Under the pieces are notes generated by a model, which had not been told where the DNA came from, made no database searches, and saw nothing but the letters and a program-made list of their open reading frames with translations. Shown here in pieces: positions 26,140 through 49,590 of a DNA stretch of 64,000 nucleotides (the stretch's first letter is position 1; each line of letters begins with the position of its first letter). A program made the translations under genes and the position numbers. This DNA is from Spirochaetota bacterium (GTDB taxonomy: Bacteria; Spirochaetota; UBA4802; UBA5550): positions 2,028-66,027 of the forward strand of contig JBNKTL010000020.1 of the NCBI GenBank assembly GCA_050298055.1. Direction: 5' to 3'.

Positions 26140-26203
26140 ATATTTTGTTCCGAAGGTCCCGAAGGCGGGGTCCCTAAGGGGGGGTCCCGTGACCCCGCCT
26201 TCG
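26140..26203. repeat. 64-nt perfect palindrome (23-bp arms) in the divergent rsmI/tgt intergenic region
   Basis: ccgaaggtcccgaaggcggggtc ...18 nt... gaccccgccttcgggaccttcgg. The loop itself contains cccTAAggggg. Confidence 0.7.
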
Positions 26204-26290
26204 GGACCTTCGGGATAAAACTCTTTTTATTCTTGTCATAATACCGGTCCTTCTGTCACTTGATACTTCTATTATAAAGGAAAAATCATT

Positions 26291-32494: not shown

Positions 32495-32848
32495 TTAATA
32501 AAAATCAGTTAACGATTCAGACAATCTCTTCAATTGCGTTAACAATTCCGGAATATTTCTTTTGACTGTGTCCCAGACAATTTCATCCTCGATAACATCG
32601 TAACCGTGAATTATTACGTTTCTAAAACCTATAATCTCCTTCCAGTTATCGATATTTGAAAGCAGTTCAATATTGATATTTTTTATCCTGTTTAATGCTT
32701 CACCAATTATTTCAAATTCCCTTTCTATTGCGGCTTTTGTCTTTGAATCGTTAAAATATTCTTCACCATCTAATCCTTCAGTGAATTCCAGGATCAGTTC
32801 GCAGGCTTTTATAGCATCTTCAATACATACAAGCGGATCATGCAGCAT
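32495..32848 (-). CDS. hepT: HepT-like (DUF86) toxin of a HepT/MntA toxin-antitoxin pair
   Basis: The DUF86 motif RNVIIHGYDVIEDEIVWDTV is present. It is 117 aa and is paired with the upstream nucleotidyltransferase. Confidence 0.75.
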   Translation of the reverse strand: MLHDPLVCIEDAIKACELILEFTEGLDGEEYFNDSKTKAAIEREFEIIGEALNRIKNINIELLSNIDNWKEIIGFRNVIIHGYDVIEDEIVWDTVKRNIPELLTQLKRLSESLTDFY

Positions 32849-33191
32849 ATATTTCCCTTACATTTGAAAAAATATATTTCTTTATACGCTGGTTTTTTAT
32901 GGCACCGGGCATGACAATATCAACAGATCGGTTAAAAAGTTTTTCAAGTTCAAACTTTATATTCATATATCGCACCATTCCGTTCTCCGGATTATCCAGT
33001 TCTAACAAAACATCAATATCACTGCTTTCTTTAAAATCCTCGGTTAGTACGCTTCCGAAAACCGCAAGTGACCTCACATTGTAAGTCTGACATATCTTTA
33101 TAATATCGTCTTTATTTTCTTCGATTATTTTCATGTTTGATCCTTTGATTGCATCATAATAACAATTTCTCATATAAAAAAAATATGTCAA
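32838..33191 (-). CDS. mntA: MntA-like minimal nucleotidyltransferase antitoxin
   Basis: It has the nucleotidyltransferase motif LAVFGSVLTEDFKESSDIDVLLELD. It overlaps hepT by 11 nt. Confidence 0.75.
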   Translation of the reverse strand: MTYFFYMRNCYYDAIKGSNMKIIEENKDDIIKICQTYNVRSLAVFGSVLTEDFKESSDIDVLLELDNPENGMVRYMNIKFELEKLFNRSVDIVMPGAIKNQRIKKYIFSNVREIYAA

Positions 33192-33322: not shown

Positions 33323-33370
33323 GAATTTTGTGCCCTTACCCCCCGTCCCCCTCTCCCAGGGGGAGAGGGG
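33323..33370. repeat. Family-2 C-run/G-run hairpin (ccccctctccc AGG gggagaggggg), partial copy upstream of ispG
   Basis: An 11-bp perfect stem. It resembles the C5-N3-G5 hairpins at 34511-34590 and 39851-39940. Confidence 0.5.
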
Positions 33371-33403
33371 GTGAGGGAATTAAATATAACCAGGTAAATA
33401 CCT

Positions 33404-34483
33404 TTGAGAAAACGAAGAAAAACACGAAACGTAAAAATCGGAAAAACCGGGATCGGCAGCGATTACCCGGTCTCCATTCAGTCCATGACCAATGTCCCCA
33501 TAGAGGATGTTCCCGGGACAATAAGCCAGGTCAACGAGCTTGCTGAGAACGGCGCGGATTTTGTCCGCCTGGCTGTCCGCAACGAGAGCTCCGTTTTGAA
33601 CTTAAAAAAGATCATTGAGGCGGTGAATGTCCCCCTTATCGCGGACATACACTTCAACTATAAAATAGCCATAAAGTCAATTGAGGCGGGGATAAAAAAG
33701 ATCCGCCTCAATCCCGGCAACATCCCCAACCCGGCGCACGTAAAGGAAGTAATCAAGGCGGCAAAGGAGCGTTCCGTGCCCATACGGATCGGTGTAAACG
33801 GAGGCTCCATCAACAGGAAGAAGTACAGCCATGTGGACCCGGAAAGCCTTGTGGACTCGGCCCTGGAGCATATAAAGATCCTTGAGGAGAACGACTTCCA
33901 TGATATTGTCGTATCCATTAAAACATCGGATATCTACCAGACCATAGACTCCAATATCCTTTTCGCGGAGCAGAGGGACTACCCGGTCCATATCGGGCTC
34001 ACGGAGGCGGGATACGGCATCTACTGCGCGGTGCAGAGCTCCCTGGTCATGGGGCATCTTTTGATGCGGGGGATCGGCGACACCATCAGGGTCTCCATGA
34101 CCGGCAACCCGGTTCATGAACTTGAGGTGGCCCGGAACATCCTTGAGACCACCGGCGACCGGAAAGCAAGCGTAAGGATGATATCCTGCCCCACCTGCGG
34201 AAGGACCGACACGCGGATTGACGTCCTTGAACTGAGCCGCAGCGTGGAAAAGGAATGCAGGGAGAGGTTCGGGAAGAAACTAGCGGAGGAGAAGAGGACA
34301 TTGACCGTGGCGGTCATGGGCTGCGAAGTGAACGGTCCGGGAGAGGCAGCCGAGGCCGATGCGGGCATAGCGGGAGGCCGTGACGGCAATATGCTCCTCT
34401 TTGCCCGGGGAGAAAAGATCAGGATGGTGAAGAGTGATGAGGCGGTGGAGATGCTGATAAAGGAAGTGGAGAAGATCGTTTAG
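33404..34483 (+). CDS. ispG: 4-hydroxy-3-methylbut-2-enyl diphosphate synthase IspG (GcpE)
   Basis: The GcpE TIM-barrel is present (YPVSIQSMTN..., VRLAV) together with a C-terminal Fe-S domain (CPTCGRT...MGCEVNGPGE). Confidence 0.9.
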   Translation: MRKRRKTRNVKIGKTGIGSDYPVSIQSMTNVPIEDVPGTISQVNELAENGADFVRLAVRNESSVLNLKKIIEAVNVPLIADIHFNYKIAIKSIEAGIKKIRLNPGNIPNPAHVKEVIKAAKERSVPIRIGVNGGSINRKKYSHVDPESLVDSALEHIKILEENDFHDIVVSIKTSDIYQTIDSNILFAEQRDYPVHIGLTEAGYGIYCAVQSSLVMGHLLMRGIGDTIRVSMTGNPVHELEVARNILETTGDRKASVRMISCPTCGRTDTRIDVLELSRSVEKECRERFGKKLAEEKRTLTVAVMGCEVNGPGEAAEADAGIAGGRDGNMLLFARGEKIRMVKSDEAVEMLIKEVEKIV

Positions 34484-34510: not shown

Positions 34511-34590
34511 AGAGCCCCCCATCCCCCGGAGGGGGCGTAAGATTTTATTGCATAAACTCTCTTATGCCCCCTTAGGGGGTTAGGGGGTCT
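34511..34590. repeat. Family-2 hairpin-pair repeat (ccccc-GGA-ggggg and ccccc-TTA-ggggg), inverted copy of 39851-39927
   Basis: The reverse complement aligns at roughly 85% identity over about 80 nt with 39851-39927. It lies between convergent ispG and the M23 peptidase gene. Confidence 0.65.
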
Positions 34591-34615
34591 TTCTTCGTGT
34601 GAAATCTTTTTATCT

Positions 34616-35593
34616 TTACCTTCCCCTCACAAAGACTCCCGGATTAATCGGCCTCCCGCTCTTCCTGATCTCAAAGTGGAGGTGGGGACCGGTGGTCTGT
34701 CCCGTATTTCCCGAGAGGGCGATCATCTCTCCCCGTTTAATGATGCTGCCTGTTTTTACCTTTATCCTGTTGAGGTGGCCGTAGTAGCTCCGGTAGCCAT
34801 GTTCATGACCCAGGATAACCAGGTTTCCGTAACCGCCCTTATACCCCGTAAAGAGCACCTTCCCCCCCCTGGCCGCGTAGACCCGTGTGTTTATCCTGCA
34901 TGCCAGGTCCACTCCCGTATGAAACTGGAATTTCCGCCTGTTAAAGGGATTTCTTCTCATCCCGAAACCGGAAGTTCTTTTTCCCCTCACGAGGGGATAC
35001 ATAAAACCTGTTCCGAGAAAGAGTGAGCGCTGCAGACCGGTCAGTTTACCGCAGGGGACAAAGAGAATTTTTTTGGAAAGATCTTCGCTTCCGTTTACCC
35101 GTGCCACATACTCCCGGGTAATCCTGCTTCGTTTAATGATCTCGTTGATCCTTTCCCTTTCGGAGGGATTTATGATAATTCCCCGCATGTTGGGGATAAA
35201 GATGATCTTTCCCGGCCTGATATCCCGGGGAGTTGAGAGGGAGTTTACGGAGATAAGGGTGTCCATGTCCAGTGATGTCCGGGAGAGAATAATCCAGAAA
35301 GTTTCTTCTTTCTTTACCCGGTACCGGTAAAATTTCAGATCGGGCAGTGTTTCCGTGGGACGCCTGCTCTTTACGGTGAAAATTGATCTTCGGATATCTT
35401 TTCTGATAGACTTTAAAAGCTCTGATTTTACCGGATCAAGCTCTTTGAGAAACGGGATCCTCGGAGGAGTGCCGGAGGAAATCTCCGGTAACATCATCAC
35501 GGAGATAAGAAGGAGTAATATTTTCAATTTAATATTTTTTCCGGTCCGTATCATTACAGCAGGCCTTTTTATGTCACTAAGCATATGTTTCAT
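34616..35593 (-). CDS. M23-family metallopeptidase (LytM-like) with a LysM-like region
   Basis: The M23 catalytic motifs HxxxD and HxH are present (FQFHTGVDLA..., GNTGQTTGPHLHFEIR). It has an N-terminal signal/transmembrane segment. Confidence 0.8.
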   Translation of the reverse strand: MKHMLSDIKRPAVMIRTGKNIKLKILLLLISVMMLPEISSGTPPRIPFLKELDPVKSELLKSIRKDIRRSIFTVKSRRPTETLPDLKFYRYRVKKEETFWIILSRTSLDMDTLISVNSLSTPRDIRPGKIIFIPNMRGIIINPSERERINEIIKRSRITREYVARVNGSEDLSKKILFVPCGKLTGLQRSLFLGTGFMYPLVRGKRTSGFGMRRNPFNRRKFQFHTGVDLACRINTRVYAARGGKVLFTGYKGGYGNLVILGHEHGYRSYYGHLNRIKVKTGSIIKRGEMIALSGNTGQTTGPHLHFEIRKSGRPINPGVFVRGR

Positions 35594-35768
35594 TTTCGGT
35601 TGATCAAGGGTCCCGGTTAAGGGATATTTTTAGGTTTTTACTGTTTGACTCAAAAATAAAAAAGTGATAAAAATGAGGGCCTCAGCGGACCATAATGATG
35701 GCTGCTGTTATCCTAAAATAAGGAGGAATACTGCCCCGGGCAATAAAGAGGGGCAGTTGATTTTGCAC

Positions 35769-36311
35769 ATGAAAAATCATTTTATCAGGAAAGTTCTTAT
35801 CGGTTCCCTGCTTGTTGCTTTTTTTACGGCAACAGGATGTTACTACAATTCAACTTATCCCATTGATAACCCGTCAATGAAAAGGGACCCGAAACTCCTG
35901 GGGCAGTGGAAACCGGGTAAATACTCCAAGGAGTATTACGACATAAAAGCCGGGAAGGGCCCCTTTCTCTACAACATAGATCACTATAAGTATGACAGTA
36001 AGTTAAAGAAAGTGGTCCTGAAGATAAAATATACGGGGTATCTTTCGAGAGTGAAGAGTTATAACTTCATGAATGTGAAAAAGATCTGGGAACTGGACTA
36101 TAAGGGGAGAGGAAAGAGTATTCCGGCAGGCAGGCAGAAATACATGTTTTACAAGCTGAACAGACAGGGGGCAAACTTTTCAGCGGATATTGTAACCAGT
36201 AATATCAGGGAGAAGTTCTCTTCGTCAAATGATCTGAAATCTTTTTTCGAAAAATACGCGGACCTGAGCTTTTTTTATCACAGCCAGACTGTAAAATTTC
36301 TTAAGAAATAA
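35769..36311 (+). CDS. Hypothetical lipoprotein
   Basis: The internal ATG gives a canonical lipoprotein signal (MKNHFIRKVLIGSLLVAFFTATGC). Confidence 0.45.
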   Translation: MKNHFIRKVLIGSLLVAFFTATGCYYNSTYPIDNPSMKRDPKLLGQWKPGKYSKEYYDIKAGKGPFLYNIDHYKYDSKLKKVVLKIKYTGYLSRVKSYNFMNVKKIWELDYKGRGKSIPAGRQKYMFYKLNRQGANFSADIVTSNIREKFSSSNDLKSFFEKYADLSFFYHSQTVKFLKK

Positions 36312-36332
36312 AAGAGATTGAAAAAATTAAAA

Positions 36333-36422
36333 AATGCCGGCAATGTGTCCCCGCCGCCTTGAGCGGCGGGGACACATCTATTATTTTTTATTCATTAATA
36401 TATCTATTCTCAACAGAGCTGA
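36333..36422 (+). repeat. Family-1 palindromic repeat element, copy B (15-bp stem ATGTGTCCCCGCCGC, 3' motif AGCTGAGCAGTAACC)
   Basis: The hairpin is at 36333-36367 and the conserved motif at 36408-36422. It starts 22 nt after the stop of the upstream lipoprotein gene. Confidence 0.65.
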
Positions 36423-36560
36423 GCAGTAACCTTAATTCTATTAAAACAAATAAGCAAAAAAATCATATTGACATTTATCCCATATTGAGTAATTTTGAAA
36501 AAACAGCGGGACAATTTACCTTTCAAGAGTCATTGAATATATTTATATAAAGAGGGAATT

Positions 36561-36989
36561 ATGGCATTCACAAAAACCGGGGAAGTTGTAGATAATATTA
36601 TCGGTGAGAATTCTTTTTTTACCGGTAATTTCGTTATAAACGGGTCCCTTAAAATTGACGGCAGGTTTGAAGGGAAATACCTGCAGGCGGAACAACTCTA
36701 TGTTGGACAGGGCGGTAAAATAAAAACCAACATAAGTGCGGTATCGGTCATTGTTGAAGGCCTTATCCTTGGCAATATCAGCGCGAAAAGCCGGGTTATT
36801 CTCATGCCTACCGCAATGGTATACGGGGACATTAAGACCCCGGAACTTATAATCCAGAATGGCGTAATCCTGGAGGGCAGATGCACGATTTCAAATGATC
36901 TCAAGTCCTCTGCCCGTGAGCTTCTTGAAGCAGAATACAAGAAGAACAGGATCATACCCAAAGAGTTTCTTGAAAAGAAAACCGGTTAA
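36561..36989 (+). CDS. Bactofilin (DUF583) cytoskeletal protein
   Basis: It has the beta-helical bactofilin repeats (GSLKIDGRFEG...GKIKTNISAVSVIVEGLILGNISAKSRVIL). Confidence 0.8.
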   Translation: MAFTKTGEVVDNIIGENSFFTGNFVINGSLKIDGRFEGKYLQAEQLYVGQGGKIKTNISAVSVIVEGLILGNISAKSRVILMPTAMVYGDIKTPELIIQNGVILEGRCTISNDLKSSARELLEAEYKKNRIIPKEFLEKKTG

Positions 36990-37962
36990 AATTGGTATAA
37001 CAATCGGTGATCCCGCGGGCATTGGTCCGGAGGTGTCACTGAAAGCCGCGGCCTGTCTTGAAGAAAAATCTCTCATACCTGTGCTTATCGGGAGGAGCGA
37101 AGTGGTTACGGAACTCTATCCCGGCCTCTCCAAAGATTACAGGATAATTGATAACCCTGACATGGAACCTCTGCGGGGGAACAGGTATTTTTACACTACA
37201 GGATCTCACAGGCCTCTCCCGGAACCGGGACGGGGAAGTCCCGAAACCGGGGGCGAATCCCTTGAGTACATAGACACGGCCCTTGAACTCTGGAAAAAGG
37301 GCTTTATTGATGCCGTCGCAACCGCGCCTGTGAACAAGGGATTTATCCAGAAATCGGGAGTGGAGTTTTCCGGCCATACTGAATATATCGCCCGTAAAAC
37401 CGGTGAAGCAAGCCCCCTGATGCTCATGTACTCTCCCGTATTCAGGGTCATACCGGTGACCACCCACATCCCGGTATCAGGTATCATAAATAACCTCAGC
37501 GAAGAGAGAATAACAGAAGCGATCATATCCGGGGCAGGAGCCATTGAAGAGCTTGACGGAAAGAAGGCCCGGGTAGCCGTGGCAGGCCTTGATCCCCACT
37601 GCGGGGACAGCGGCGCCATCGGGGACTTTGATGAGAGGGTCACAAAAATTGCCGTGGAAAACGCGGTGAGGAAGGGGATCGATGTTGAAGGCCCCCTCTC
37701 CGCGGACACTCTCTTTATGCGGGACATCTGGAAGAAGTACAGCCTGGCCATTGCCCTCTACCATGACCAGGGACTCATTCCCTTTAAAGTCCTGGCATTC
37801 GAGAGGGGAGTAAATGTAACCCTGGGGCTGAAGATCATCAGAACATCGGCGGATCATGGGACCGCGTACAACATGGCCGGGAGAGGGGAAGCAGACCACA
37901 GGAGCATGCTTGAGGCCATACTTCTCGCGTACAGGCTTGTCCTGAATAAAAAAGAGGTTTGA
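36970..37962 (+). CDS. pdxA: 4-hydroxythreonine-4-phosphate dehydrogenase PdxA (start uncertain; TTG at 36970 proposed)
   Basis: The PdxA motifs are present (IGITIGDPAGIGPEV, GHTEY, ALYHDQGLIPFKV). The in-frame ATG at 36895 would overlap the bactofilin gene by 95 nt. Confidence 0.75.
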   Translation: MKRKPVKIGITIGDPAGIGPEVSLKAAACLEEKSLIPVLIGRSEVVTELYPGLSKDYRIIDNPDMEPLRGNRYFYTTGSHRPLPEPGRGSPETGGESLEYIDTALELWKKGFIDAVATAPVNKGFIQKSGVEFSGHTEYIARKTGEASPLMLMYSPVFRVIPVTTHIPVSGIINNLSEERITEAIISGAGAIEELDGKKARVAVAGLDPHCGDSGAIGDFDERVTKIAVENAVRKGIDVEGPLSADTLFMRDIWKKYSLAIALYHDQGLIPFKVLAFERGVNVTLGLKIIRTSADHGTAYNMAGRGEADHRSMLEAILLAYRLVLNKKEV

Positions 37963-37971
37963 GGGCGGGTA

Positions 37972-38424
37972 TTACCTTTGCTTTATAAGATTGTTTATAT
38001 TGACGGTGAGTTTTTTGATAATCTCTTCTCTGGTCCTGCCGCTGGCTGAGGTAAATTTTATCTCTCTCACTCTCCCTGACCTTTTAAATTTTATCATTGC
38101 GCTTATTTTCCCCTTGGAAAAGTACTGTTTAAGGCCCCCCTTCTCGCTGTATTCAATAATTTCCGCCCCCGATGAATATGAATAAACAAATATTTCGATT
38201 GTTCCCGATCCCTTCTGCCTGTCCAGTTTGACTTTTATGAGATTTTTAACAGCTTCCGCCCGCAGGTCCAGATCGCTGTTTATTATAACATCCAGGTTCC
38301 TGTAGCTTTTTATGTTTTGCATACATCCGGAGAGAAGTATCGTTGCAAGGAGCAGCAGTTTGATTTTTAAAATTGCTTTTTTTGTTGTACCGGTTGTTAA
38401 TATCATATATACCCAAAAGTACAT
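37972..38424 (-). CDS. Hypothetical lipoprotein
   Basis: It has a signal peptide with a lipobox-like LLSGC. Confidence 0.4.
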   Translation of the reverse strand: MYFWVYMILTTGTTKKAILKIKLLLLATILLSGCMQNIKSYRNLDVIINSDLDLRAEAVKNLIKVKLDRQKGSGTIEIFVYSYSSGAEIIEYSEKGGLKQYFSKGKISAMIKFKRSGRVREIKFTSASGRTREEIIKKLTVNINNLIKQR

Positions 38425-38616
38425 TCAGTATCATTGAACAGGAAAAATCCAATAATTTTTTCTGCTATAATACTTTTTGTTTTACATTGGTCAATCATGT
38501 TAATGAATTATTAGTGATCATTTTACAGAAACCATCCGAAAATAAAAACAGTTGAAAAAATTATATACGTAATCGATCTTGAGTTCAAATATTGACCGGA
38601 AAACCTTTCATCACTT

Positions 38617-39060
38617 ATGAATGAAGCTTTAATTATTAAATCTGTTTTTATCTTTGTCTCTCTCTGGGGGATCGGGATTGTTATGCTCTGGTTCAGGCCG
38701 AGGATCGAGATTTTCTGGAAGATCATCGCGACCCTTATTCTGGGGTTCTATATTTGGTTTTTCTTTGATGAGATTGTCAGCGGGCTCAGCACATTCAAAA
38801 GCGGGTGGGCCGCCTCATCACTCCAGTTCCTCAAGGAGCTGATAACCCTTGTCTTTGTAAACATGTTTTTCTTCTGGCCCCTTGCCCTCATCCTCATCTT
38901 TTACAAGGCCGATGACATCGGGGCGGAGAAACTTCTTAAATTCCTCTGTATTCTCACCCTTATACTCTGGATAGTCTTTGTGGTATATTTTACCTTCAGT
39001 TCAGGTATTGATAAATACCTCTATGAGAACCTGAAGAAGATAATTCCCGATGCTCAATGA
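38617..39060 (+). CDS. Hypothetical polytopic membrane protein
   Basis: It has four hydrophobic helices. Confidence 0.4.
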   Translation: MNEALIIKSVFIFVSLWGIGIVMLWFRPRIEIFWKIIATLILGFYIWFFFDEIVSGLSTFKSGWAASSLQFLKELITLVFVNMFFFWPLALILIFYKADDIGAEKLLKFLCILTLILWIVFVVYFTFSSGIDKYLYENLKKIIPDAQ

Positions 39061-39559
39061 ACGTATCATTTCTCTTCTTTTCCTGTTCTTCCTGATATTC
39101 AGCAGTGCTCTCTATTCCCTGGAGAATTCCACGGCACTCTATAAAAAGGGGGCCGCCCTTGCCGCGGAGGGAAAGATCTCAGAGGCCGTGGAAGTCTTTA
39201 AAAAAGTCATTGTGACAAACCGGTACTACGCTCTCGGGCATTACGGGCTGGGGAAAGCGTATCTCTATCTTCCGGGTAAACTTGATGAATCGATTATCCA
39301 CCTTCGACAGTCGGTCCAGCTGGACCGAAGACTTTCAAAGGGGCACTTCTACCTGGGGATGGCTTACCTCTTCGCCAATAAACTGCCCCGGGCGGCAGGT
39401 TCATTCCATACGGCATACAGGCTTGATGATTCCCTGGTTGAAGCACTCTACAATCTTGGTGTTGTCTATGACAGGATGAAAAATAAATACAAGTCGGAAT
39501 TTTACTACAGGCTGTATCTCAAGAGGAAATACAAAAAGGGAGAGGAGAGGATCTTCTGA
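39050..39559 (+). CDS. TPR-repeat protein with signal peptide
   Basis: TPR-like repeats are present (YYALGHYGLGKAY..., GHFYLGMAYLFANK..., ALYNLGVVY). Confidence 0.6.
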   Translation: MLNERIISLLFLFFLIFSSALYSLENSTALYKKGAALAAEGKISEAVEVFKKVIVTNRYYALGHYGLGKAYLYLPGKLDESIIHLRQSVQLDRRLSKGHFYLGMAYLFANKLPRAAGSFHTAYRLDDSLVEALYNLGVVYDRMKNKYKSEFYYRLYLKRKYKKGEERIF

Positions 39560-39850
39560 GAGTCCTAACCGGATTTTTCTGTCTGCCTTCTGACCATGTC
39601 CCCCACCCGGGGTCCGTAAATGTCCCTGATTGCCCTGAGACACCTTCTGCGTTCGGCACCCTTTACTCCGTGGATATAACCGGAAAGACAGAGTCCTGCT
39701 ATTTTTTCTTCAAATTTCATTTTAAACTCCATAGTAACCTATCGGCGCAGGTTGAAGGAAAATTGATCTCTCACAAGGAAAATCAAAATTTGAAGATCCT
39801 GTTTTTGTCTTGTAAAAATAGCGTCTCTTTTCACTATTAATTCCCACGCT

Positions 39851-39940
39851 CTTGCCCCCCTAACCCCCTGAGGGGGCACAAGAGTTCAGGAAAAGAATCT
39901 TTCGCCCCCTCAGGGGGATGGGGGGCTCAGGGGGATGGGG
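39851..39940. repeat. Family-2 hairpin-pair repeat (ccccc-TGA-ggggg and ccccc-TCA-ggggg), upstream of the response regulator gene
   Basis: An inverted copy of 34511-34590. It contains two 13-nt C5-N3-G5 hairpins about 40 nt apart and a third partial GGGGGATGGGG motif. Confidence 0.65.
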
Positions 39941-39954
39941 AAAAATAAAGTACT

Positions 39955-40644
39955 ATGTTAAACACAACGAAAAAACAGATACTTATCATTGAGGATGAAC
40001 CGGGAATTGCCGATACCATCACCTATTCCCTTGAAACGGAGGGTTTCATCACACAGAGGGTCGCTACCGGCCTGGAGGGCCTCAAGGCCCTGAAGGAGGG
40101 AGATCCGTCACTTATTGTTCTTGATGTGGGTTTGCCCGATATTAATGGTTTTGACCTGGTCAAGAAGATCAGGGAGATATCGGATCTTCCCGTTGTTTTT
40201 TTGACTGCCCGGGGAGAGGAGATAGACAGGATCCTCGGGTTTGAGCTGGGGGGGGACGATTATATCGTAAAGCCGTTCAGCCCCCGGGAGCTTACAGTGA
40301 GAATAAAGGCCATTTTAAGAAGGGCGGATACGGAGAACAGGGGTGAGGACGAAAAGGTCTTCAGTATCGATTATAACAGGAGGACAATTAAATATTTCGG
40401 TCAACAGGTGGTCCTGACCCGGTATGAATATGAACTTCTGGTGCTCCTCATATCAAGGCCCGGCTGGGTCTTCAGCAGGGAAAAGATCATGGAGATGGTC
40501 TGGGAGGACCCTGAAGAGAGCTTTGACAGAACAGTTGATACGCATATCAAGTCAATCAGGGGAAAGCTCCGGGAGATAAAAGACGATTATGAACCCATCG
40601 TCACACACAGGGGCGTGGGTTATTCCGTGAGGGAGGACATATGA
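39955..40644 (+). CDS. OmpR-family response regulator (CreB-like)
   Basis: It has a receiver domain (LIIEDEPGIADTI...LDVGLPDINGF) and a winged-helix output domain. Confidence 0.85.
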   Translation: MLNTTKKQILIIEDEPGIADTITYSLETEGFITQRVATGLEGLKALKEGDPSLIVLDVGLPDINGFDLVKKIREISDLPVVFLTARGEEIDRILGFELGGDDYIVKPFSPRELTVRIKAILRRADTENRGEDEKVFSIDYNRRTIKYFGQQVVLTRYEYELLVLLISRPGWVFSREKIMEMVWEDPEESFDRTVDTHIKSIRGKLREIKDDYEPIVTHRGVGYSVREDI

Positions 40645-42077
40645 GGATACGGACGAGGATAATTCTCGGTTACGCGATTTTATTTTCCCTCGGTTTTTAT
40701 TTTATCGGTGATTTTATGGTCCGTGAAATCAGGCCCCGTTATCTCGAGGCGGTAGAGGAATCGCTGAATGATACGGTGAATATACTGGCGTCTCTCATTG
40801 AGTCCGAACTGCTGGGGGAGCATATGGACCTGGTTCTCCTCAGAAGGACTTTTTCCTCGGCCTTTAAAAGAAAATTCGATGCCAGGATCTACGGATTCAG
40901 GAAAACCGGCGTGGAATTAAATGTCTATGTGACTGACGGGAAGGGAATTGTGGTCTATGATTCCAACGGCGGCCTTAACCGGGGGAAGGACTTTTCTGAC
41001 TGGAATGACGTCCATCGCACCCTGAAGGGGAAATACGGCGCCAGGTCAACCAGGAGGAACAAAGACGATCCCTCTTCCAGCCTTCTCCATGTTGCCGCGC
41101 CAATCAGGAGCGGGGGGAAGATCATCGGATCGGTTACCGTGGTCAAGCCCCTTGACAGCGTGACCGTGTTTATTCAGCTTGCCCGGAGCAGGATATTTTT
41201 GACCGGTTTTATTGCAGTGGCTGCATTCCTTGTACTGAGCGTTATCATATCGGTATGGATAAGCAGGCCCGTGATGAAACTGACGGATTACATAAATTCT
41301 CTCAGGGAGAAAAAGCACCCGGTCTTTCCGGACTTAAGCGGCAGGGAGATAAGGGACCTGGGAAAAGCATTCCGGGAACTCCTGGAAGAACTGGAGGGGA
41401 AAAAATATATTGAAGACTATATCCAGAGCCTGACACATGAGCTTAAAAGCCCCCTCTCCTCCATCCGGGGTGCTGCTGAACTCCTCATGGAGGACAACAT
41501 GGAGAAGGTCCATGCTGACAGGTTCTGCGGCAATATCCTTACGGAGAGCAGGAGGATTGACACAATTATTGAGAAGATGCTCCTTATTTCGTCACTTGAA
41601 AGGAGGGACAGGCTGGAGAATATTGAGGACATGGATCTTCACGTTCTTGTTGAAGAAGTCCTGGAGAGCCTCTCCCCGCAGATTGCCCTTAAGAATATCC
41701 GGATTGAAAACAGGACAGAAAAAAAGATTATTCTGCAGGGTGAGAAATTCCTGCTCCGTCACGCGGTTGCCAACCTCATCCAGAACGGGATAAACTTCAG
41801 CGGGGAGAATGAGAGGATAATCATCTCTTCGGAGTTTGACGGTGGAAACCTGCTCATTAAAATATCCGACAATGGCTGCGGTATCCCGGAATACGCGGAG
41901 GAGAAGATCTTCCGCAGGTTTTATTCCCTTCCCCGGGGAGAATCGGGGAGGAGGGGAACGGGCCTGGGGCTGACCTTTGTCCTGGAGGCAGTCAAGCTTC
42001 ACGGAGGGAGCGTATCAGTCAAAAACAACAGCAAAGGGGGCGTCACCTCCACACTTACACTCCCTGCAAAGAATTAA
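40641..42077 (+). CDS. Sensor histidine kinase (CreC-like)
   Basis: It has two transmembrane segments, a periplasmic domain, an H-box (LTHELKSPLSSIRGAAELL) and a HATPase_c domain (GTGLGLTFV). Confidence 0.8.
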   Translation: MRIRTRIILGYAILFSLGFYFIGDFMVREIRPRYLEAVEESLNDTVNILASLIESELLGEHMDLVLLRRTFSSAFKRKFDARIYGFRKTGVELNVYVTDGKGIVVYDSNGGLNRGKDFSDWNDVHRTLKGKYGARSTRRNKDDPSSSLLHVAAPIRSGGKIIGSVTVVKPLDSVTVFIQLARSRIFLTGFIAVAAFLVLSVIISVWISRPVMKLTDYINSLREKKHPVFPDLSGREIRDLGKAFRELLEELEGKKYIEDYIQSLTHELKSPLSSIRGAAELLMEDNMEKVHADRFCGNILTESRRIDTIIEKMLLISSLERRDRLENIEDMDLHVLVEEVLESLSPQIALKNIRIENRTEKKIILQGEKFLLRHAVANLIQNGINFSGENERIIISSEFDGGNLLIKISDNGCGIPEYAEEKIFRRFYSLPRGESGRRGTGLGLTFVLEAVKLHGGSVSVKNNSKGGVTSTLTLPAKN

Positions 42078-42214
42078 TAATATGGCTGAAGAGGAAAAAA
42101 TTCAAAATTTTCCCATTAAGCTATAAAAAAATCTCCACTTCACACAGACTTCACAATCAGTTCACAGGGTGCTTTTACAATAATATTAAAAGTAATCGCT
42201 AAAGGAGTGTTCTT

Positions 42215-43558
42215 ATGAATTTTGAAAAAATGAAGAATTCAACCATGCTGAAACTGGGAATAACCGGTTTTATGACCCTTCTTTTTCTCATTCCCCTGGG
42301 GATGATATCCGACCAGGTCAGGGAGAGGACGGTGAGAAGGGACACCGCGGTCAACGAGGTGAGCGCAAAGTGGGGGTACAGTCAGAAAGTTATCGGCCCC
42401 GTACTGGCCATTCCTTATAATCACTACTACCTTGACCAGAAAAATGTGGTCAGGAAGAAACGCAGGCTGGCATATTTTCTTCCCGAACAGCTGAAAATAA
42501 ACGGCAGGGTTGAAACGGAGAAGAGGGCCCGGGGGATTTTCGAGGTTGTCCTCTACAGGGTGGACAACCTTGACCTGTCGGGAAAGTTCAGGTTTCCCGA
42601 TTTTAAAAAACTGAAGATCGAAGAAGAGAATGTGTTCTGGAACGATGCCTTTCTCTCCGTTGGGATATCCGATACCCGGGGAATAAAAAAGAATGTTCTC
42701 CTCAAGATGAACGGAAAGAAGTATAACTTTGAACCGGGTGTGAACAATGTGGGCATATTCGGATCGGGGATTCATGTTCCCCTGAAAAGGATCAGAAATA
42801 TGAGGGGAAGGGATATCGATTTCGGGTTTTCGGTAAATATCCAGGGAAGCTCATCCCTGAGTTTTGCCCCCTTCGGGAAGGAGACCCATGTTTACCTCCA
42901 TTCCCCCTGGGAGCATCCCAGTTTTTTCGGGTCCTACCTGCCTGTGAACAGGGAGATATCAGAGGAGGGATTTAATGCCAGCTGGAAGGTCTCCTATTTC
43001 GGACGGAACTTCCCCCAGGAGTGGACAGAGGAGAATAACCCGCAGAGCTCTGATATAGACAACGTTATGTTCGGTGTGAGTCTCTATATGCCGGTTGATT
43101 TTTACCAGAAGTGTCAGAGGGCAGTCAAATACAGTTTCCTGGTCATATCCCTCACCTTCCTGGTTTTTTTCCTCTTCGAGGTACTGAACGGTTTGAGTAT
43201 CCACCCCATACAATACCTCATGGTGGGATTTGCCCTCTCGATTTTTTATATGCTTTTTCTCTCCATATCGGAGCACCTCAATTTTGTTCTTTCATACATA
43301 ATATCAGCTGCCGCGACAATCGGGCTGATATCCGCTTACAGCATTAAGGTCTTAAAGGCAAAGGGAAGAACATCCGTATTGTCCGGACTCCTGGTCTGTC
43401 TCTACGGTTATCTCTTTGTTCTGCTGCAGAACCAGGACTACGCTCTGCTCATCGGTTCCCTGGGACTCTTCCTGATACTTGCTACGATCATGTATATTAC
43501 ACGGAACATCGACTGGTATAATATCAAGCTCAACAGGCGCTTTGTCCGGGAGAGTTGA
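42215..43558 (+). CDS. creD: Cell envelope integrity inner-membrane protein CreD
   Basis: CreD-family topology and motifs are present (GMISDQVRERTVRRDTAVNEVSAKWGYSQKVIGPVLAIPY), with C-terminal multi-transmembrane segments. Confidence 0.7.
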   Translation: MNFEKMKNSTMLKLGITGFMTLLFLIPLGMISDQVRERTVRRDTAVNEVSAKWGYSQKVIGPVLAIPYNHYYLDQKNVVRKKRRLAYFLPEQLKINGRVETEKRARGIFEVVLYRVDNLDLSGKFRFPDFKKLKIEEENVFWNDAFLSVGISDTRGIKKNVLLKMNGKKYNFEPGVNNVGIFGSGIHVPLKRIRNMRGRDIDFGFSVNIQGSSSLSFAPFGKETHVYLHSPWEHPSFFGSYLPVNREISEEGFNASWKVSYFGRNFPQEWTEENNPQSSDIDNVMFGVSLYMPVDFYQKCQRAVKYSFLVISLTFLVFFLFEVLNGLSIHPIQYLMVGFALSIFYMLFLSISEHLNFVLSYIISAAATIGLISAYSIKVLKAKGRTSVLSGLLVCLYGYLFVLLQNQDYALLIGSLGLFLILATIMYITRNIDWYNIKLNRRFVRES

Positions 43559-43625
43559 TTGTAAAGCAAAATGAGTTCCTTTTCCAGTTTATAAAATAGG
43601 GGATAGGGAGATAAAGAGGGGATAT

Positions 43626-43670
43626 GGGGATAAGTTATTATTAAAACTTATCCCATCTCCTTTATCCCCA
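43626..43670 (+). terminator. Candidate terminator or imperfect hairpin after creD
   Basis: ggggataagtt / aacttatccc stem with a 9-nt loop, followed by a T-rich run. It is embedded in GGGGATA direct repeats. Confidence 0.35.
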
Positions 43671-43802
43671 TTTTACTCGGGCATGAATTAAATTCCGGGA
43701 AATTATGGTATTAATGCACTTTTAGTAAAAAGTTTTAATTAATCTCACTCCTCAATCGTATTAATATTTGGAAAGAATAACTCTCTTTCTGAATTATACA
43801 TT

Positions 43803-44264
43803 GTGAGGATGGATAATATGAGAACGACTATTAATGCAGACACATTACTGGTCTTAAGGCTGAGAGAAGCCATGGCTGAAGTTGGTTTGCCAAAGGATGA
43901 ACTGATCAAACTTTTAATAATACGGACCATTAAGAAAAACAGCTTTATTCCTCAACCCTGTAAAACAGTGAAGTACCAGGATGGCGGACCGGAGAGAGTT
44001 TGGAAAATTGAACATATCAACCTGGAGTCTTTATTCTATGAGAAGGTCCTTGATTTGAGGAGACATTTTAAGTTTTCCGTTTCGTGGTTTGTTGCTTTTG
44101 CTATTATTAATTATCTTGATGAACTGGTAAACGATTTAATTAATTCAGGAAATAGTGCAAAAAGTATGGATAACTATACTGGAAATTATGTTTATATCTC
44201 TGAAATAATAGGTAATATGCTCGTATTTATCACAATGATTAAAACACAAAACAAAAAAACCTGA
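43803..44264 (+). CDS. Hypothetical protein
   Basis: A 153-aa ORF with no recognisable domain. Confidence 0.35.
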   Translation: MRMDNMRTTINADTLLVLRLREAMAEVGLPKDELIKLLIIRTIKKNSFIPQPCKTVKYQDGGPERVWKIEHINLESLFYEKVLDLRRHFKFSVSWFVAFAIINYLDELVNDLINSGNSAKSMDNYTGNYVYISEIIGNMLVFITMIKTQNKKT

Positions 44265-44476
44265 AAAAACCGGTATATCCAAATAAGTACGAAATTTTTA
44301 CTAAAACCAGGCATCCGGTTTCTGTCCCGGATTTTCAATCACGCCCTTATACTCTTACTTTCTCTCTTTTAATTTCTCATTTACACATAAGGTTATAAAA
44401 AATAGAGTGTCTCATTCGAGGCAATTATTCAATTTTATTTTCTCAAATTAATTATTTTGAAAATGGCAATAAAACC

Positions 44477-45985
44477 GTGACAGACTTTCCGGAAAAACAT
44501 CCATCAAAAACCCTCATGGTACAGGGGACCACTTCGGACGCGGGGAAGAGTACCCTTGTTGCGGGGCTCTGCCGGGTCTTTAAGCGCCGCAATATAAAGG
44601 TCGCCCCTTTTAAGCCGCAGAATATGGCCCTGAACAGCGCGGTGACCCTGGACGGAGGGGAGATCGGCCGGGCGCAGGCGGTACAGGCACAGGCCTGCGG
44701 GCTGGAACCTCATACGGACATGAACCCCGTGCTTCTGAAACCGAATACCGATACCGGCGCCCAAGTGATTATTCAGGGCAGGGCGCTGAAGGATATGGAT
44801 GCCCGGAGTTACCATAACTACAAAGCGGTTGCCCGGGAAGCGGTGCTGGAATCCCACGGCCGCCTGGCAGAACGGTATGAAAAAATTATCGTTGAAGGTG
44901 CGGGGAGCCCCGCGGAGATCAACCTTCGTGAGGGTGATATCGCCAACATGGGATTTGCCGAGGCCGTGGATTGCCCGGTGATCCTCATTGCCGATATCGA
45001 CCGCGGGGGCGTCTTCGCGCACCTTGTGGGTACCCTTGATCTTTTAAGCCGGCCGGAACAAAACCGTATCAAGGGCTTTGTCATCAACCGCTTTCGGGGT
45101 GATATCACTCTGCTGCAGCCCGGACTTGACTGGCTGGAGAAAAAAACCGGGAAACCGGTCCTGGGTGTGTTGCCCTATCTCCACGGCCTGCACATAGAAG
45201 CGGAAGATGCCCTGGTTGAAACTCCCGCAAAGGCGGAAACAGGTGCCGGAATAAAAATTATTGTTCCGGCGCTGCCCCGCATCAGCAATCACACCGATTT
45301 TGATCCGCTTCGCCTGCATCCGCAGGTTGATTTTGAATTTATCGGCCCGGCCCGGACCATCCCTCCCGCCGACCTGATTATCCTGCCGGGGAGTAAGTCA
45401 GTGCGGAGTGACCTGCAGTTTCTCCGTGAGCAGGGATGGGAGCAGGTCATCGGGAAACATCTTCGTTACGGAGGAAAGCTGCTGGGTATCTGCGGCGGAT
45501 TTCAGATGCTGGGCAAAAAAATTCACGACCCGGAGGGCCTCGAGGGCCCCGGGGGAAGCTGTGACGGCCTGGGGTTCCTTGATCTTGAAACCACCCTGGA
45601 ACCGGAAAAGCAGCTGCATGGTGTCAGGGGTGAAATAATTTTTCACTGGGGAACTCAGGGAGTAACCGGCTATGAAATTCACTGCGGGATTTCCCGGGGC
45701 AGGGCAATGGAACGGCCCTTTGCAAAGATCAGGGATACCCATGACCGGGAAAAATTTGACGGCGCTGTTTCGGAAGACGGGCAGATCATCGGGACCTATC
45801 TCCATGGTGTTTTTAATGAAAAGTCAGCGCAGGAGATCCTTTTGCCCTGGGCAGGACTGGAGCCGGGTTCGGGACAAAGAGGAATCGAGCTCCTGGATTA
45901 CCGGGAAATATGCGAAGAGGGGATCAACCGCCTGGCCGATGCCTGTGAAGAGCACCTTGATATGGAGAAAATATTTTCTCTATAA
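44477..45985 (+). CDS. cobQ: Cobyric acid synthase CobQ/CbiP
   Basis: It has a DRTGT-like ATPase N-domain ([11 protein letters not shown]) and a glutamine amidotransferase C-domain ([10 protein letters not shown]). Confidence 0.9.
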
Positions 45986-46040
45986 TTTAACTCTTTATTC
46001 CTTAAATTTTTTAGTCTGCAACAAATCTTTTTTTTCCTGT

Positions 46041-47057
46041 TCAAAAACGGGACAGGAAAAAAAACAGCGCGAAGAGTGCCATTACCAGAAAAGATGCTCT
46101 TCCGGCGGTGCGGATGATCCGGACAGCTTTTTCCAGATGAGCCCTGCGGGGAATTTCGATGCCGCTGCCTATCCAGCCTTTGTCAACAACACTGTCTCCG
46201 TAGACAATGGGTCCCGCAAGGGGAATATTCAATGCCCCGGCCATAAAGCTTTCCGGATATCCGGAATTGGGAGAGGGGGTGCTGTTCCCATAGCGAAAAA
46301 AATCAGATATTGCCCTTTTGAGATTGCCCTTATGTGTCGCAACCCCCGCTGCCAGGGGAAAAAGCGAAAGCCGGGCGGGGAGGTAATTTAAAATGTCATC
46401 CAGTCGCGCCGACGCCCATCCGAAATACCGGTACCTGTCATTCTTATATCCCACCATGGCATCCAGTGTATTTACGGTCCGAAAGAAGACCGCCCAGATC
46501 AAAACAGGGACCAGGGGGTGGTAACCTGAAAAAAGGGACACCGCAAGGATTATCATTGTGCCGGATAAAAGAGTGAAGGAGCCGTCTACATAATTTTCCG
46601 CAACGCTTTCAATTGCCGCCCTGATTATCCCCGGTTCATCCAGGACCTCGGTATTTCTTCCCACCATGTAAGAAACCCGTTGCCGGGCCGCAGCGAGGGA
46701 ATTTTTTTCCAGGGCAGTGAAAACCTTTTCAGCGTGGAGAAGCAGGTCTTTCTGAGCGTACATTGAGAAAAAAACATAGATGCCGAAAAGCCAGGTCAGG
46801 GGCCTCCAGAGGAAGAACAGTCCCCGGTATGTGAGAGAGAGGAGTGTCAGGGGAAGAGTGCAGCAGAGCAGCAGGTAGAAAACACCCAGGAGCCGTTCAG
46901 CCGTAACATTCTGAAAGTGGTGCCCCTTTCGGATTATTTCTTCTATTCTCCGAAAGAGGGTCCCCATCAAACGGACCGGATGAAACCTGTATACCGGGTC
47001 GCCGGTGAGTTCATCGAGAAACATTGCAAGAAAAAGAACAATAAATGTTTCACTCAT
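46041..47057 (-). CDS. cbiB: Adenosylcobinamide-phosphate synthase CbiB/CobD
   Basis: It has CobD/CbiB-family membrane protein motifs. Confidence 0.85.
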   Translation of the reverse strand: MSETFIVLFLAMFLDELTGDPVYRFHPVRLMGTLFRRIEEIIRKGHHFQNVTAERLLGVFYLLLCCTLPLTLLSLTYRGLFFLWRPLTWLFGIYVFFSMYAQKDLLLHAEKVFTALEKNSLAAARQRVSYMVGRNTEVLDEPGIIRAAIESVAENYVDGSFTLLSGTMIILAVSLFSGYHPLVPVLIWAVFFRTVNTLDAMVGYKNDRYRYFGWASARLDDILNYLPARLSLFPLAAGVATHKGNLKRAISDFFRYGNSTPSPNSGYPESFMAGALNIPLAGPIVYGDSVVDKGWIGSGIEIPRRAHLEKAVRIIRTAGRASFLVMALFALFFFLSRF

Positions 47058-49025: not shown

Positions 49026-49176
49026 TATTCAATATAAGAGGTTAATAATTAACGGCTACTCTTTATCAATTTTTGTTCCCTGTCAAACATTTATGGGTTT
49101 CTAAAATTAAATTTACAGCTACGTTACTACCCAAGCTTTGTATAAAATAGATATATTAGTGAATAAACGATAAGTA

Positions 49177-49272
49177 ATGTGTCTCCGCCGTTGACCGCGG
49201 CGGGGATACATGGATGTTATCCTATTAAATATGTTTCGCCATACGGCTAAGTCGTTTCGTAACTACTCAGCT
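49177..49272. repeat. Family-1 palindromic repeat element, copy C (degenerate stem; downstream motif present in inverted form GTAACTACTCAGCT)
   Basis: The hairpin at 49177-49213 has 2 mismatches. The conserved motif appears reverse-complemented at 49259-49272. Confidence 0.55.
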
Positions 49273-49505
49273 GAATGCAGAGTGACAATAAGGATATCCT
49301 GAAAATAATTTATGGAGGTTCTCTTAATATTATTGACAATATTTCAGAAGATCTTTCGTTATTGTTTTTTTGTCTCTGAATTGTTTTTTATGTGACAAAT
49401 AATGTATAATTATATATTATTGTTTTATATAAAAAAAGATAACTAATTAGATATTAAATAATTAAATATATGATCAAAATAACCTTTTTCTAAAAGATTA
49501 ATAAT

Positions 49506-49590
49506 ATGTCCCCGCCGCCGAAGGCGGCGGGGACATAAAAATTATGTTTTTCCATGGATATAATTATTCTAAGCATGTGTAGTTACGCAA
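49506..49590 (+). repeat. Family-1 palindromic repeat element, copy D (14-bp perfect stem, loop GAA; degenerate 3' motif GTGTAGTTAC)
   Basis: The hairpin at 49506-49536 has a stem sequence identical to copy A. Confidence 0.65.

Follow-up and report, generated by a model that had tools for sequence, protein, structure and literature searches.

A small family of C-run/G-run extragenic palindromes, probably REP/REPIN-like or MITE-like, in an uncultured Spirochaetota lineage

Results

Gene context of the repeat elements

The window (the whole 64-kb stretch of DNA that was analyzed) represents core chromosome, in which flagellar, chemotaxis, tgt and cobalamin genes are found, and holds three related repeat elements, A, B and C, all at extragenic sites (Table 1). 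Element A lies 28 nt past the stop codon of ispG and 26 nt from that of the convergent M23 peptidase gene, which opens a 5.3-kb gene block. At the other end of this block, element B has the start of a 51-aa ORF on one side and, on the other, the start codon of a response-regulator gene, the latter 15 nt past the end of B and its adjoining duplication; as the 51-aa ORF is on the minus strand at the block end, these two genes are divergent and B lies between them. Element C is found further upstream, with its 3' end 26 nt from the start codon of ispG. An earlier note on this DNA had described the two long copies as bracketing a block that runs from an M23 peptidase to a TPR protein, which was borne out, the block additionally containing the 51-aa ORF.

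Table 1. Positions of the repeat elements, their units and the adjoining genes in the window.
Feature	Coordinates	Strand	Description
Element C	33333..33377	+	Degenerate single long hairpin; R1 22.5 bits
ispG (GcpE)	33404..34483	+	Pfam PF04551, E=2.9e-125; flanks A upstream
Element A	34512..34589	+	Full doublet, family orientation; R1 101 bits, E=1.5e-23
Left 28-nt unit of A	34515..34542	+	CCCCCC-AT-CCCCC-GGA-GGGGG-CGTAAGA
Right 28-nt unit of A	34560..34587	-	Minus-strand reading CCCCC-TAA-CCCCC-TAA-GGGGG-CATAAGA
LysM/M23 peptidase gene	34616..35593	-	Pfam; convergent with ispG, first gene of the block
51-aa ORF	39565..39720	-	Conserved; gene call in L001 and L132; protein sequence conserved; last of the block
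Element B	39854..39926	-	Full doublet, family orientation on the minus strand; R1 89.7 bits
CTCAGGGGGATGGGG	39926..39940	+	15-nt tandem partial duplication of the right end of B
OmpR-type (CreB-like) response-regulator gene	39955..40644	+	Pfam; JGI source names homologue CreB

Structure and predicted folding of the repeat unit

Each full element consists of two inverted copies of a 28-nt unit, CCCCC-N3-CCCCC-N3-GGGGG-C-RN-AAGA, varying within the form C5-6 / 2-3 nt / C5-N3-G5 / C-RN-AAGA and arranged as a head-to-head doublet around an AT-rich centre of 17 nt in A and 14 nt in B. Element A thus reads GAG-C6-AT-C5-GGA-G5-CGTAAGA ... TCTTATG-C5-TTA-G5-TTA-G5-TC, and the flanks of the units are GAG or GA on the 5' side and CGTAAGA, CATAAGA, CGAAAGA or CACAAGA on the 3' side. 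A 22-nt unit, CCCCCNNNCCCCCNNNGGGGGC, has an exact match in all four half-elements of A and B and, when up to three mismatches are allowed, nine matches in the window against 0.59 expected; exact CCCCC-N3-GGGGG occurs four times in the window, always within A or B, against 0.12 expected from shuffles. The terminal inverted repeats take up the whole of each element, which is an inverted repeat over its full length. No ORF is present inside the elements, and the GTAG or CGTC (TGTC/CCTC) tag found beside the stem-loops of other repeats is absent from the units of A and B.

The CCCCC-N3-GGGGG motifs had been taken as two 13-nt hairpins per copy. The motifs are present, but not as independent hairpins: each copy is one long imperfect palindrome, and each element is predicted to fold, as RNA or as single-stranded DNA, into a single hairpin of ~30 bp. 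Predicted folding energies range from -52 to -63 kcal/mol for RNA (z ~ -5 to -6) and from -24 to -31 kcal/mol for single-stranded DNA, compared to ~ -4.6 for each small hairpin, and the models strongly favour the long hairpin over two small ones. The "loop" triplets of the small hairpins are complementary between arms (e.g. TGA/TCA, AAA/TTT), and an alignment of 12 sequences has compensatory changes at 10 of 23 pairs. Element B, identical in L001 and L002, is the most perfect palindrome in the set.

Alignment of the reverse complement of A with B gave a local score of 94, against 50 in direct orientation, with global identities of 64/78 (82%) inverted and 72% direct; inverted arms of 38 nt (I7, 89%) and 29 nt (I13, 93%) were recovered by the repeat search. 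The inverted orientation is real, by a margin that is modest because each copy is itself palindromic. Both the sequence and these scores uphold the proposal of a second repeat family with inverted copies at the two ends of the block, with the identity at ~82% rather than the approximately 85% put forward earlier.

Members of the family in and beyond the window

Within the window, the covariance model R1 retrieved A, B, weakly C and an unrelated long palindrome (26141-26223), and nothing else. The sequence of C is CCC-TTA-C6-GT-C5-TCTCCC-A-G5-AGA-G5-TGA-GGG. A third relative upstream of ispG had indeed been reported, at 33323-33370, but it is better placed as in Table 1 and is loosely related to the others (22.5 bits versus 101 and 90). 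Variants of C occupy the same site in relatives (L132, 184-251; L133, at its start; L135, 1419-1455), and strong R1 members were detected in L132, L131 and L125. The units are arranged singly in L120 and L122, as direct arrays in L130 and L118, and as inverted doublets in L125 and L131. Near-identical arms were also found in metagenome contigs of Bacteroidales, a likeness imposed in part by the search pattern; there the unit is embedded in a ~230-nt repeat with terminal inverted repeats of its own, TAAGTAAT...ATTACTTA. No match in the window reached the gathering scores of Rfam 15, and a permissive search gave only sub-threshold hairpins resembling miRNA precursors, so that the repeat family documented here is one that curated RNA libraries lack.

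Gene order between A and B

The presence of ~80-nt copies, 82% identical and inverted, at both ends of the block had raised the possibility that A and B are recombination sites, homologous or site-specific, at which the segment from 34.6 to 39.9 kb inverts, flipping its M23 peptidase, bactofilin, pdxA and TPR genes. However, inspection of the assemblies of the window strain (L001, L134) and of seven relatives (L132, L133, L136/L139, L137, L138, L140, L141) revealed one orientation only: wherever an assembly overlaps the region, the genes of the M23-to-TPR block have an unchanged order and face the same way with respect to ispG and the response-regulator gene, even in relatives without A, without B or without either. 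No recombinase, invertase or transposase domain was identified by Pfam in the block or in any other of the 58 ORFs scanned across the 64 kb, three ORFs of the block having no Pfam match of any kind. A and B have at most 16 nt in common as an exact run, whereas efficient RecA-dependent exchange needs roughly 23-27 bp. Invertons such as Hin/Gin, fimS and the promoter switches of Bacteroides share with this locus the inverted repeats around a DNA segment, but here there is no recombinase gene, and what lies between the repeats is a 5.3-kb run of housekeeping genes without promoter-switch logic, instead of a promoter or a variable gene, in a single orientation that relatives maintain with one or both repeats missing. 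Inversion is thus largely refuted and, in our judgement, highly improbable, and the inverted orientation of A and B is without consequence for gene order. The outcome that the earlier note had set against its own proposal, a dispersed repeat with no sign of inversion between copies, is essentially what was found, "dispersed" being a label that refers to few copies (two full and one degenerate in 64 kb). A false lead is thereby removed, in that the M23 peptidase, bactofilin and pdxA genes need not be regarded as under a DNA switch in a phase-variable or invertible segment.

The same inverted repeats at the two ends of a gene block could also mark, as terminal inverted repeats, the ends of a genomic island or large composite mobile element with the 5.3 kb as cargo. 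Against this, the block is ancestral core genome without mobility genes, present in the same place and order in L139, where both repeats are missing, and in the distant L137, whose ispG is 65% identical and which has no family members there. Synteny refutes this explanation and leaves it practically no probability.

Gain and loss of the elements among relatives

Element A is present at the orthologous site in the window strain and in L132; L133 and L136/L139 lack it and have a fragment of another repeat instead. Among the assemblies compared, B was found only in the window's own strain; L132, L138, L139, L140 and L141 are without it, and the corresponding spacer in relatives without B contains a hairpin of family 1, a third repeat of ~200 nt, or nothing. 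Both elements are missing in L139 and L137, and no family copies were detected in the sequence compared from two close relatives (26 kb of L138 and L139) or from the syntenic L137 (21 kb). Close relatives therefore differ by gains and losses of copies in their intergenic spacers, which other repeat families colonize as well; with three repeat families swapping there, this one can usefully serve as a marker of recent intergenic turnover. Short-read assemblies of this uncultured spirochaete lineage also break at the family, the contig of L134 ending inside A and that of L133 beginning inside C. No consistent direct repeat that could represent a target-site duplication flanks A, B or the members in L125 and L131, and no clean empty site was found, the spacers of relatives without the element being unalignable near the insertion points.

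Conservation and possible function of element A

Between the window strain and L132, A is identical at 75 of 80 positions (94%), compared to 76-87% for neighboring genes and 56-73% for their third codon positions (binomial P 2e-6 or lower), and all five substitutions fall in loop or centre positions. This comparison makes it clear that A is far better conserved than neutral sites, as would be expected under constraint. Given this conservation and its distances of 28 and 26 nt to the stop codons of two convergent genes, A is probably used as a transcript-end hairpin, most likely a two-way one that would terminate transcription or protect 3' ends. A terminator scan flagged its 3' half, which is followed by a weak T-rich plus-strand tail, TCTTTCTTC, that is not conserved in L132. 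With intrinsic and bidirectional terminators A thus shares a GC-rich hairpin midway between convergent stop codons and a partly T-rich plus-strand tail, but its hairpin greatly exceeds the usual length, the T-rich stretch is weak and unconserved, and neither B nor C follows a gene. The latter two are located upstream of genes, without a tail, and between divergent genes, and therefore a terminator role does not apply to them.

These features fit an alternative in which the elements are immobile regulatory or terminator hairpins of the host that arose or were duplicated locally, each kept only for what it does locally (terminating transcripts after ispG, forming leader hairpins upstream of ispG and of the response-regulator gene). 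The constraint on A and its central position in a convergent gene pair, the terminator call on its 3' half and the C-type hairpins at one site upstream of ispG in four lineages all argue for it, as does a conserved G-T wobble (5/5 close members, 7/12 in the wider set), which hints at a strand-specific, possibly RNA, role. On the other hand, L133 and L136/L139 do without A and five relatives do without B, the same unit recurs at unrelated loci and inside the ~230-nt Bacteroidales repeat that has its own terminal inverted repeats, the spacers pass from one repeat family to another, and no Rfam family matches. We consider this alternative unlikely, though not negligible.

G-quadruplex and i-motif potential

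The G- and C-runs could instead form a G-quadruplex or i-motif and in this way modulate how the adjacent genes are transcribed or translated. A G-quadruplex pattern scan placed two of the window's four canonical four-run motifs in B (plus strand, 39913-39940) and C (minus strand, 33333-33357) and none in the conserved copy A. The motif in B is placed just upstream of the response-regulator start codon, but it is owed entirely to the 15-nt slippage duplication, in which 39913-39925 and 39926-39940 together provide four consecutive G-runs, and B is missing from all relatives carrying the same operon. Moreover, each G-run has a complementary C-run on the same strand, and the duplex hairpin (-24 to -63 kcal/mol) would compete strongly with a quadruplex. 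This mode of action is very unlikely. The more general fallback in the earlier note, that these are G-run/C-run structural elements, fits the data.

Discussion

The best reading of these results, to which we assign a probability of about 70%, is that A, B and the decayed C are separate members of a small non-coding family of REP/REPIN-like or MITE-like extragenic palindromes in an uncultured Spirochaetota lineage, an addition to an already known class of elements and not a new class. Such a family would spread by means of a trans-acting enzyme encoded outside the window, the obvious candidate mover being a Y1 transposase of the RAYT/IS200 type that recognizes single-strand hairpins, and resident copies would be open to co-option by the host. 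B may represent a recent strain-specific insertion in the divergent promoter/leader region of the creB-like two-component operon. Among the 58 window ORFs scanned with Pfam there is no RAYT, IS200-type, Y1_Tnp or other transposase, and the window contains no parent insertion sequence with matching ends.

REPINs are recognized by tens to hundreds of copies per genome and by a cognate RAYT gene flanked by the same units. The RAYT-mobilized REPINs of Pseudomonas and enterobacteria (PMC3116915, PMC3337134) share with the present family two inverted units, each with its own small palindrome, a short spacer and a long hairpin, as well as a non-coding, extragenic character, presence or absence between relatives, and occurrence as single units and clusters. 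The family described here differs in having no GTAG tag, no RAYT gene in the window, a locally low copy number and stems of pure C5/G5 runs, and in its Spirochaetota host, with look-alikes in Bacteroidales. The position of B and C between divergent genes is unusual for classical REPs and speaks against a REP assignment. A GTAG or CGTC tag marks most described REPs (PMC3733652), and these two superfamilies resemble our elements in their short GC-rich stem-loops, present as singletons or head-to-head dimers, in stem G-T pairs that suggest an RNA function and in a frequent location downstream of genes; in our elements, by contrast, no tag adjoins the hairpins, and the 5-bp stem, at the short extreme, is preceded by an extra C-run.

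Likeness to MITEs (Correia/NEMIS, ERIC/IRU, RUP, Nezha, Chunjie) is found in the non-coding length of 80-230 nt, essentially made up of long terminal inverted repeats, in intergenic insertion and strain polymorphism, in the capacity to supply terminators or alter the expression of neighboring genes, and in the Bacteroidales relatives of ~230 nt with their own terminal inverted repeats. The differences are that no target-site duplication was found for A, B or the copies in L125 and L131, and no parent IS with matching ends.

A more speculative proposal, which we hold to be distinctly doubtful, is that the nested-hairpin unit of C-run and C5-N3-G5 constitutes an undescribed third REP-like kind, untagged by GTAG or CGTC and common to Spirochaetota and Bacteroidales, with elements of similar architecture in Planctomycetota, Cytophagales and further phyla. 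Copies such as A would then have been domesticated under purifying selection as strand-specific elements, a role at which the conserved G-T wobble hints. If true, this sharing would imply cross-phylum transfer or a conserved hairpin-recognizing mobilizing enzyme, and it would provide a way to track down the enzyme responsible for moving untagged REP-like elements.

The other repeat family of the window, TGTC-CCCGCCGCC-N4-GGCGGCGGG-GACA, fits the CGTC/TGTC type of REP much better.

Anatomy of the palindromic repeats

Two repeats, A and B, had been described in the earlier note as inverted copies on either side of a 5.3-kb gene block, and both sequences were found where it had placed them. The 64-kb window has four exact matches to CCCCC-N3-GGGGG, all within A or B, against an expectation of 0.12 from dinucleotide-preserving shuffles. 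A repeat search of the window recovered two pairs of inverted arms, of 38 nt (89% identity) and 29 nt (93%), as well as an internal inverted repeat (I23) within B. The reverse complement of A aligned to B with a local score of 94 compared to 50 in direct orientation, and global identity was 82% inverted and 72% direct, so the inverted orientation is genuine, each copy being in addition palindromic itself. One unit, CCCCC-N3-CCCCC-N3-GGGGG-C followed by RN-AAGA, fits all four half-elements of A and B, the full element consisting of two 28-nt units head-to-head with an AT-rich centre between them (17 nt in A, 14 nt in B). The family has a polarity, with one arm reading C6-AT-C5 and the other G5-TTA-G5, found in this direction on the plus strand for A and on the minus strand for B.

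Each copy had been read as two separate 13-nt hairpins, in place of which a single long hairpin is now favoured. A and B are each predicted to fold into one hairpin of ~30 bp, with RNA folding energies of -51.6 and -62.7 kcal/mol, respectively (z about -5 to -6), and single-stranded DNA energies of -23.7 and -30.8 kcal/mol, compared with ~-4.6 kcal/mol for each small C5-N3-G5 hairpin alone. On these predicted energies, and on the complementarity of the "loop" bases between arms, two independent small hairpins were rejected as the main structure. A tandem partial duplication in B gives rise to the sole canonical four-run G-quadruplex motif found in a full element. The degenerate relative C is a shorter single hairpin built of C-runs and G-runs like those of A and B, and its kinship is weak: the covariance model of the A/B palindrome family (R1) scored it at 22.5 bits vs 101 for A and 90 for B. 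Rfam searches, at gathering and permissive thresholds, gave no meaningful match for the A/B/C family.

Positions of the repeats and of neighbouring or comparable features
Feature	Contig	Position	Setting or content
A	window (+)	34512-34589	between convergent ispG (stop 34483) and LysM/M23 peptidase gene (stop 34616), 28 and 26 nt from the respective stop codons
B	window (family orientation -)	39854-39926	between start of conserved 51-aa ORF (39565-39720, minus) and start of CreB-like response-regulator gene (39955)
C	window	33333-33377	between HepT/MNT toxin-antitoxin pair (minus) and ispG
Inverted arms, 38 nt	window	34512-34549/39891-39928	
Inverted arms, 29 nt	window	34559-34587/39856-39884	
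Tandem partial duplication in B	window	39926-39940	15 nt
HepT-like/MNT nucleotidyltransferase pair	window (-)	32495-33191	immediately upstream of ispG
Family 1	window	23068-23158, 36343-36420, 49134-49231, 49486-49587, 51539-51654, 57089-57179	
Family 1	L132	5634-5745, 7059-7201	
Family 1	L140	about 395-500	
Third family	L132	about 7280-7460	
Third family	L133	about 1140-1330	
Third family	L139	about 6150-6335	
Third family	L140	about 590-760	
Third family, fragment	L136	1058-1093	
Third family, fragment	L139	about 777-812	
Nested palindrome	window	26141-26223	between divergent TP_methylase-family gene and tgt
Variable segment	window	39955-48142	response-regulator to aminotransferase gene; compared with L137 16765-17845
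Gene following the 51-aa ORF in L137	window	48168-49025	
GIY-YIG nuclease-domain protein	window	59143-59523	126 aa
1168-aa ORF	window	59520-63026	
42-nt tandem repeat	window	60784-61119	within 1168-aa ORF
Look-alike doublets	L057	942-1030, 1584-1681	flank cytochrome c gene
Inverted arrays	L118	1-120, 3690-3857	contig ends

Genomic setting and gene order in relatives

The window is ordinary core chromosome, carrying a flagellar export operon, chemotaxis genes, tgt, ispG, pdxA and cobalamin genes, and no transposase, recombinase or Y1-transposase domain was detected in the 58 ORFs scanned. Homologues of ispG with source names came from Spirochaetota MAGs, and an exact look-up of the window's M23 peptidase protein returned no record. 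A terminator role for B and C was ruled out, as both lie between divergent genes. The HepT/MNT pair is missing from the position upstream of ispG in the related contigs L137 and L135, and thus represents a small accessory insertion next to C.

Related contigs gathered by exact-protein and homologue look-ups belong to the same strain (L001, L002, L134) and to seven other lineages, namely L132 (GCA_975964425.1; ispG 89% identical to the window protein), L133 and L140 (GCA_050294425.1; ispG 91%), L135 (JGI; ispG 85%), L136 and L139 (JGI; ispG 85%, response regulator 85%), L138 (Logan; response regulator 88%), L141 (GCA_050303555.1; response regulator 85%) and L137 (GCA_024276015.1; ispG 65%). The order in the window is ispG (+), M23 peptidase (-), hypothetical (+), bactofilin (+), pdxA (+), hypothetical (-), hypothetical (+), TPR (+), 51-aa ORF (-) and response regulator (+). 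Every junction spanned by a related contig shows the identical order, with L132 and L139 spanning the whole block. L137 keeps it across 21 kb with two exceptions around the M23 gene, an HD-domain gene between ispG and M23 and the loss of the hypothetical gene after M23. Same-strain contigs also match the window, L001 with TPR, B and response regulator, and L134 with ispG followed by the left half of A. The recombinational inversion between A and B that had been raised earlier is not supported: the block differs from invertons both in its single orientation among the assemblies and in the lack of a recombinase among the ORFs scanned. Because L137 and L139 keep the synteny, a composite transposon carrying the block was rejected.

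Gain and loss of A, B and C

L132 carries A at the orthologous site; L133 and L136/L139 lack it, and their spacer contains part of a different repeat. B is missing in all five relatives having the same operon (L132, L138, L139, L140 and L141); its spacer holds a hairpin of another repeat family of the window (family 1) plus a third repeat of ~200 nt in L132 and L140, the third repeat in L139, and neither in L138 or L141. C-like hairpins, of a different form in each, lie upstream of ispG in L132, L133 and L135. Neither R1 nor simple pattern scans found a family member in L138 and L139 (26 kb together) or in L137 (21 kb). This pattern of presence and absence, with the interchange of repeats in the same spacers, identifies the spacers upstream of the response-regulator gene and after ispG as sites where three repeat families replace one another, as elements do that are mobile, or that are at least often gained and lost, and not as fixed recombination sites do. 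Comparing occupied with unoccupied sites of A and B defined no target-site duplication, because other repeats have overwritten the spacers, which do not align. Two contigs end inside elements (L134 stops mid-A, L133 begins mid-C), breaks which repetition or sequencing difficulty at G/C runs would explain.

Conservation of A

A is identical between the window and L132 at 75 of 80 positions (94%), compared to 76-87% for the flanking genes and 56-73% for their third codon positions (binomial tail probability 6e-14 to 2e-6, by neutral rate assumed). All five substitutions fall in the centre or at a small-hairpin loop position, and none in the C-runs, G-runs or CGTAAGA/TCTTATG segments. This excess identity and the placement of the changes indicate that A is either subject to purifying selection or kept similar by homogenisation with other copies. 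Its position leads us to favour a role for A as a hairpin at the transcript ends of both convergent genes; the T-rich tail on its plus strand is weak and not conserved in L132, and A is dispensable in two relatives.

Family members and look-alikes elsewhere

Searching metagenomes with the pattern of the 28-nt unit gave 14 stretches, four of them GC-rich contigs that look like chance matches. The others comprise singleton units (L120/L126, L122/L127, L128), directly repeated units (L130, L123), arrays in tandem at the two ends of a contig (L118) and inverted doublets (L125, L131). The doublets have arms near-identical to those of A (CGTAAGA ... TCTT(T)ATG-C5-TTT-G5-TTA-G5-TC) around a longer centre, and score 76-90 bits with R1. 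In L125, assigned to Bacteroidales from its RNase G gene, a ~230-nt repeat with its own terminal inverted repeats has the palindrome as its core, and the contexts of the two copies differ. The search pattern itself accounts for part of the resemblance between the metagenome members and A. Two shared features are not forced by it, the G5-TTA-G5 asymmetry and a stem position with a G-T wobble (5/5 close members, 7/12 of the wider set), and these suggest, without proving, homology of the spirochaete and metagenome copies.

Scanning genome contigs with the self-complementary pattern CCCCCNNNGGGGGC-N15-45-GCCCCCNNNGGGGG proved too generic, with at least 115 loci, many in GC-rich genomes and none among those listed from the genome of the window itself. 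Among the matches listed, nested GCCCCC-N3-GGGGGC hairpins within long palindromes are a common architecture across several phyla, frequently enclosed by a further C-run/G-run pair. Across 12 such sequences, compensatory changes occur in 10 of 23 stem pairs, including "loop" positions of the small hairpins. The unit pattern had no match in viral contigs.

In L057, a Cytophagales MAG contig, two look-alike C4-5-AA-C5-N3-G5 doublets were seen, the second of which overlaps the start (first codons, Tat signal peptide included) of a gene resembling molybdopterin oxidoreductase. A RAYT between these paired elements was ruled out, the intervening gene encoding a cytochrome c and not a transposase. 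The inverted arrays of L118 (Ga0233369_1004081, 3.9 kb) are built of a 31-32-nt unit (GAAAGCCCCCCTGCCCCCCTTGGGGGCAAAA), and may represent either the ends of a linear element or an artefact of assembly.

Classification

A REPIN is structurally defined as two inverted REPs plus a spacer forming a hairpin (PMC3337134, PMC3116915), an arrangement that A and B share; no cognate RAYT gene lies within the window. Most described REPs are marked by a GTAG or CGTC tag (PMC3733652); the A/B family has neither, and was therefore placed in neither REP superfamily. A and B also resemble MITEs in having terminal inverted repeats and no coding capacity. A, B and C are best regarded as a palindrome family of REP/REPIN-like or MITE-like type, not catalogued before and low-copy as far as seen, whose host is an uncultured spirochaete lineage. 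A is an old copy that was probably co-opted, and B is a recent, strain-specific one.

Other repeats and features nearby

Family 1 consists of ATATGTCCCCGCCGCC-N4-GGCGGCGGGGACATAT plus a ~50-nt tail, and its TGTC tag, 9-bp stem and 4-nt loop fit the type of REP with a CGTC/TGTC tag that has been reported for Spirochaetes (PMC3733652). In relatives it is also found at non-orthologous sites. A direct repeat, AATTTAAA, flanks the insert in L132 and L140, and L141 has what looks like the empty site. The third family (...GTCACAGCGAGCGAAGCG...CCTCATGATGACAG...) is not present in the window, and fills in relatives the very spacers that hold A or B there. Another long nested palindrome of the window, CCGAAGGTCCCGAAGGCGGGGTCCC ... 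GACCCCGCCTTCGGGACCTTCGG followed by a T-run, scored 31 bits with R1, for structure only.

B lies at the left edge of a variable segment containing a creBC-like two-component system, creD, cobQ and cobD. The segment is missing in the distant relative L137, in which the homologue of the gene beyond it directly follows the 51-aa ORF; L132 also differs beyond creD, with a D-Ala-D-Ala ligase gene next. Towards the right of the window, ~8 copies of the 42-nt tandem repeat, which would encode a 14-residue protein repeat, lie in a 1168-aa ORF with no Pfam match, and just upstream of this ORF is the gene for a small stand-alone GIY-YIG nuclease-domain protein.
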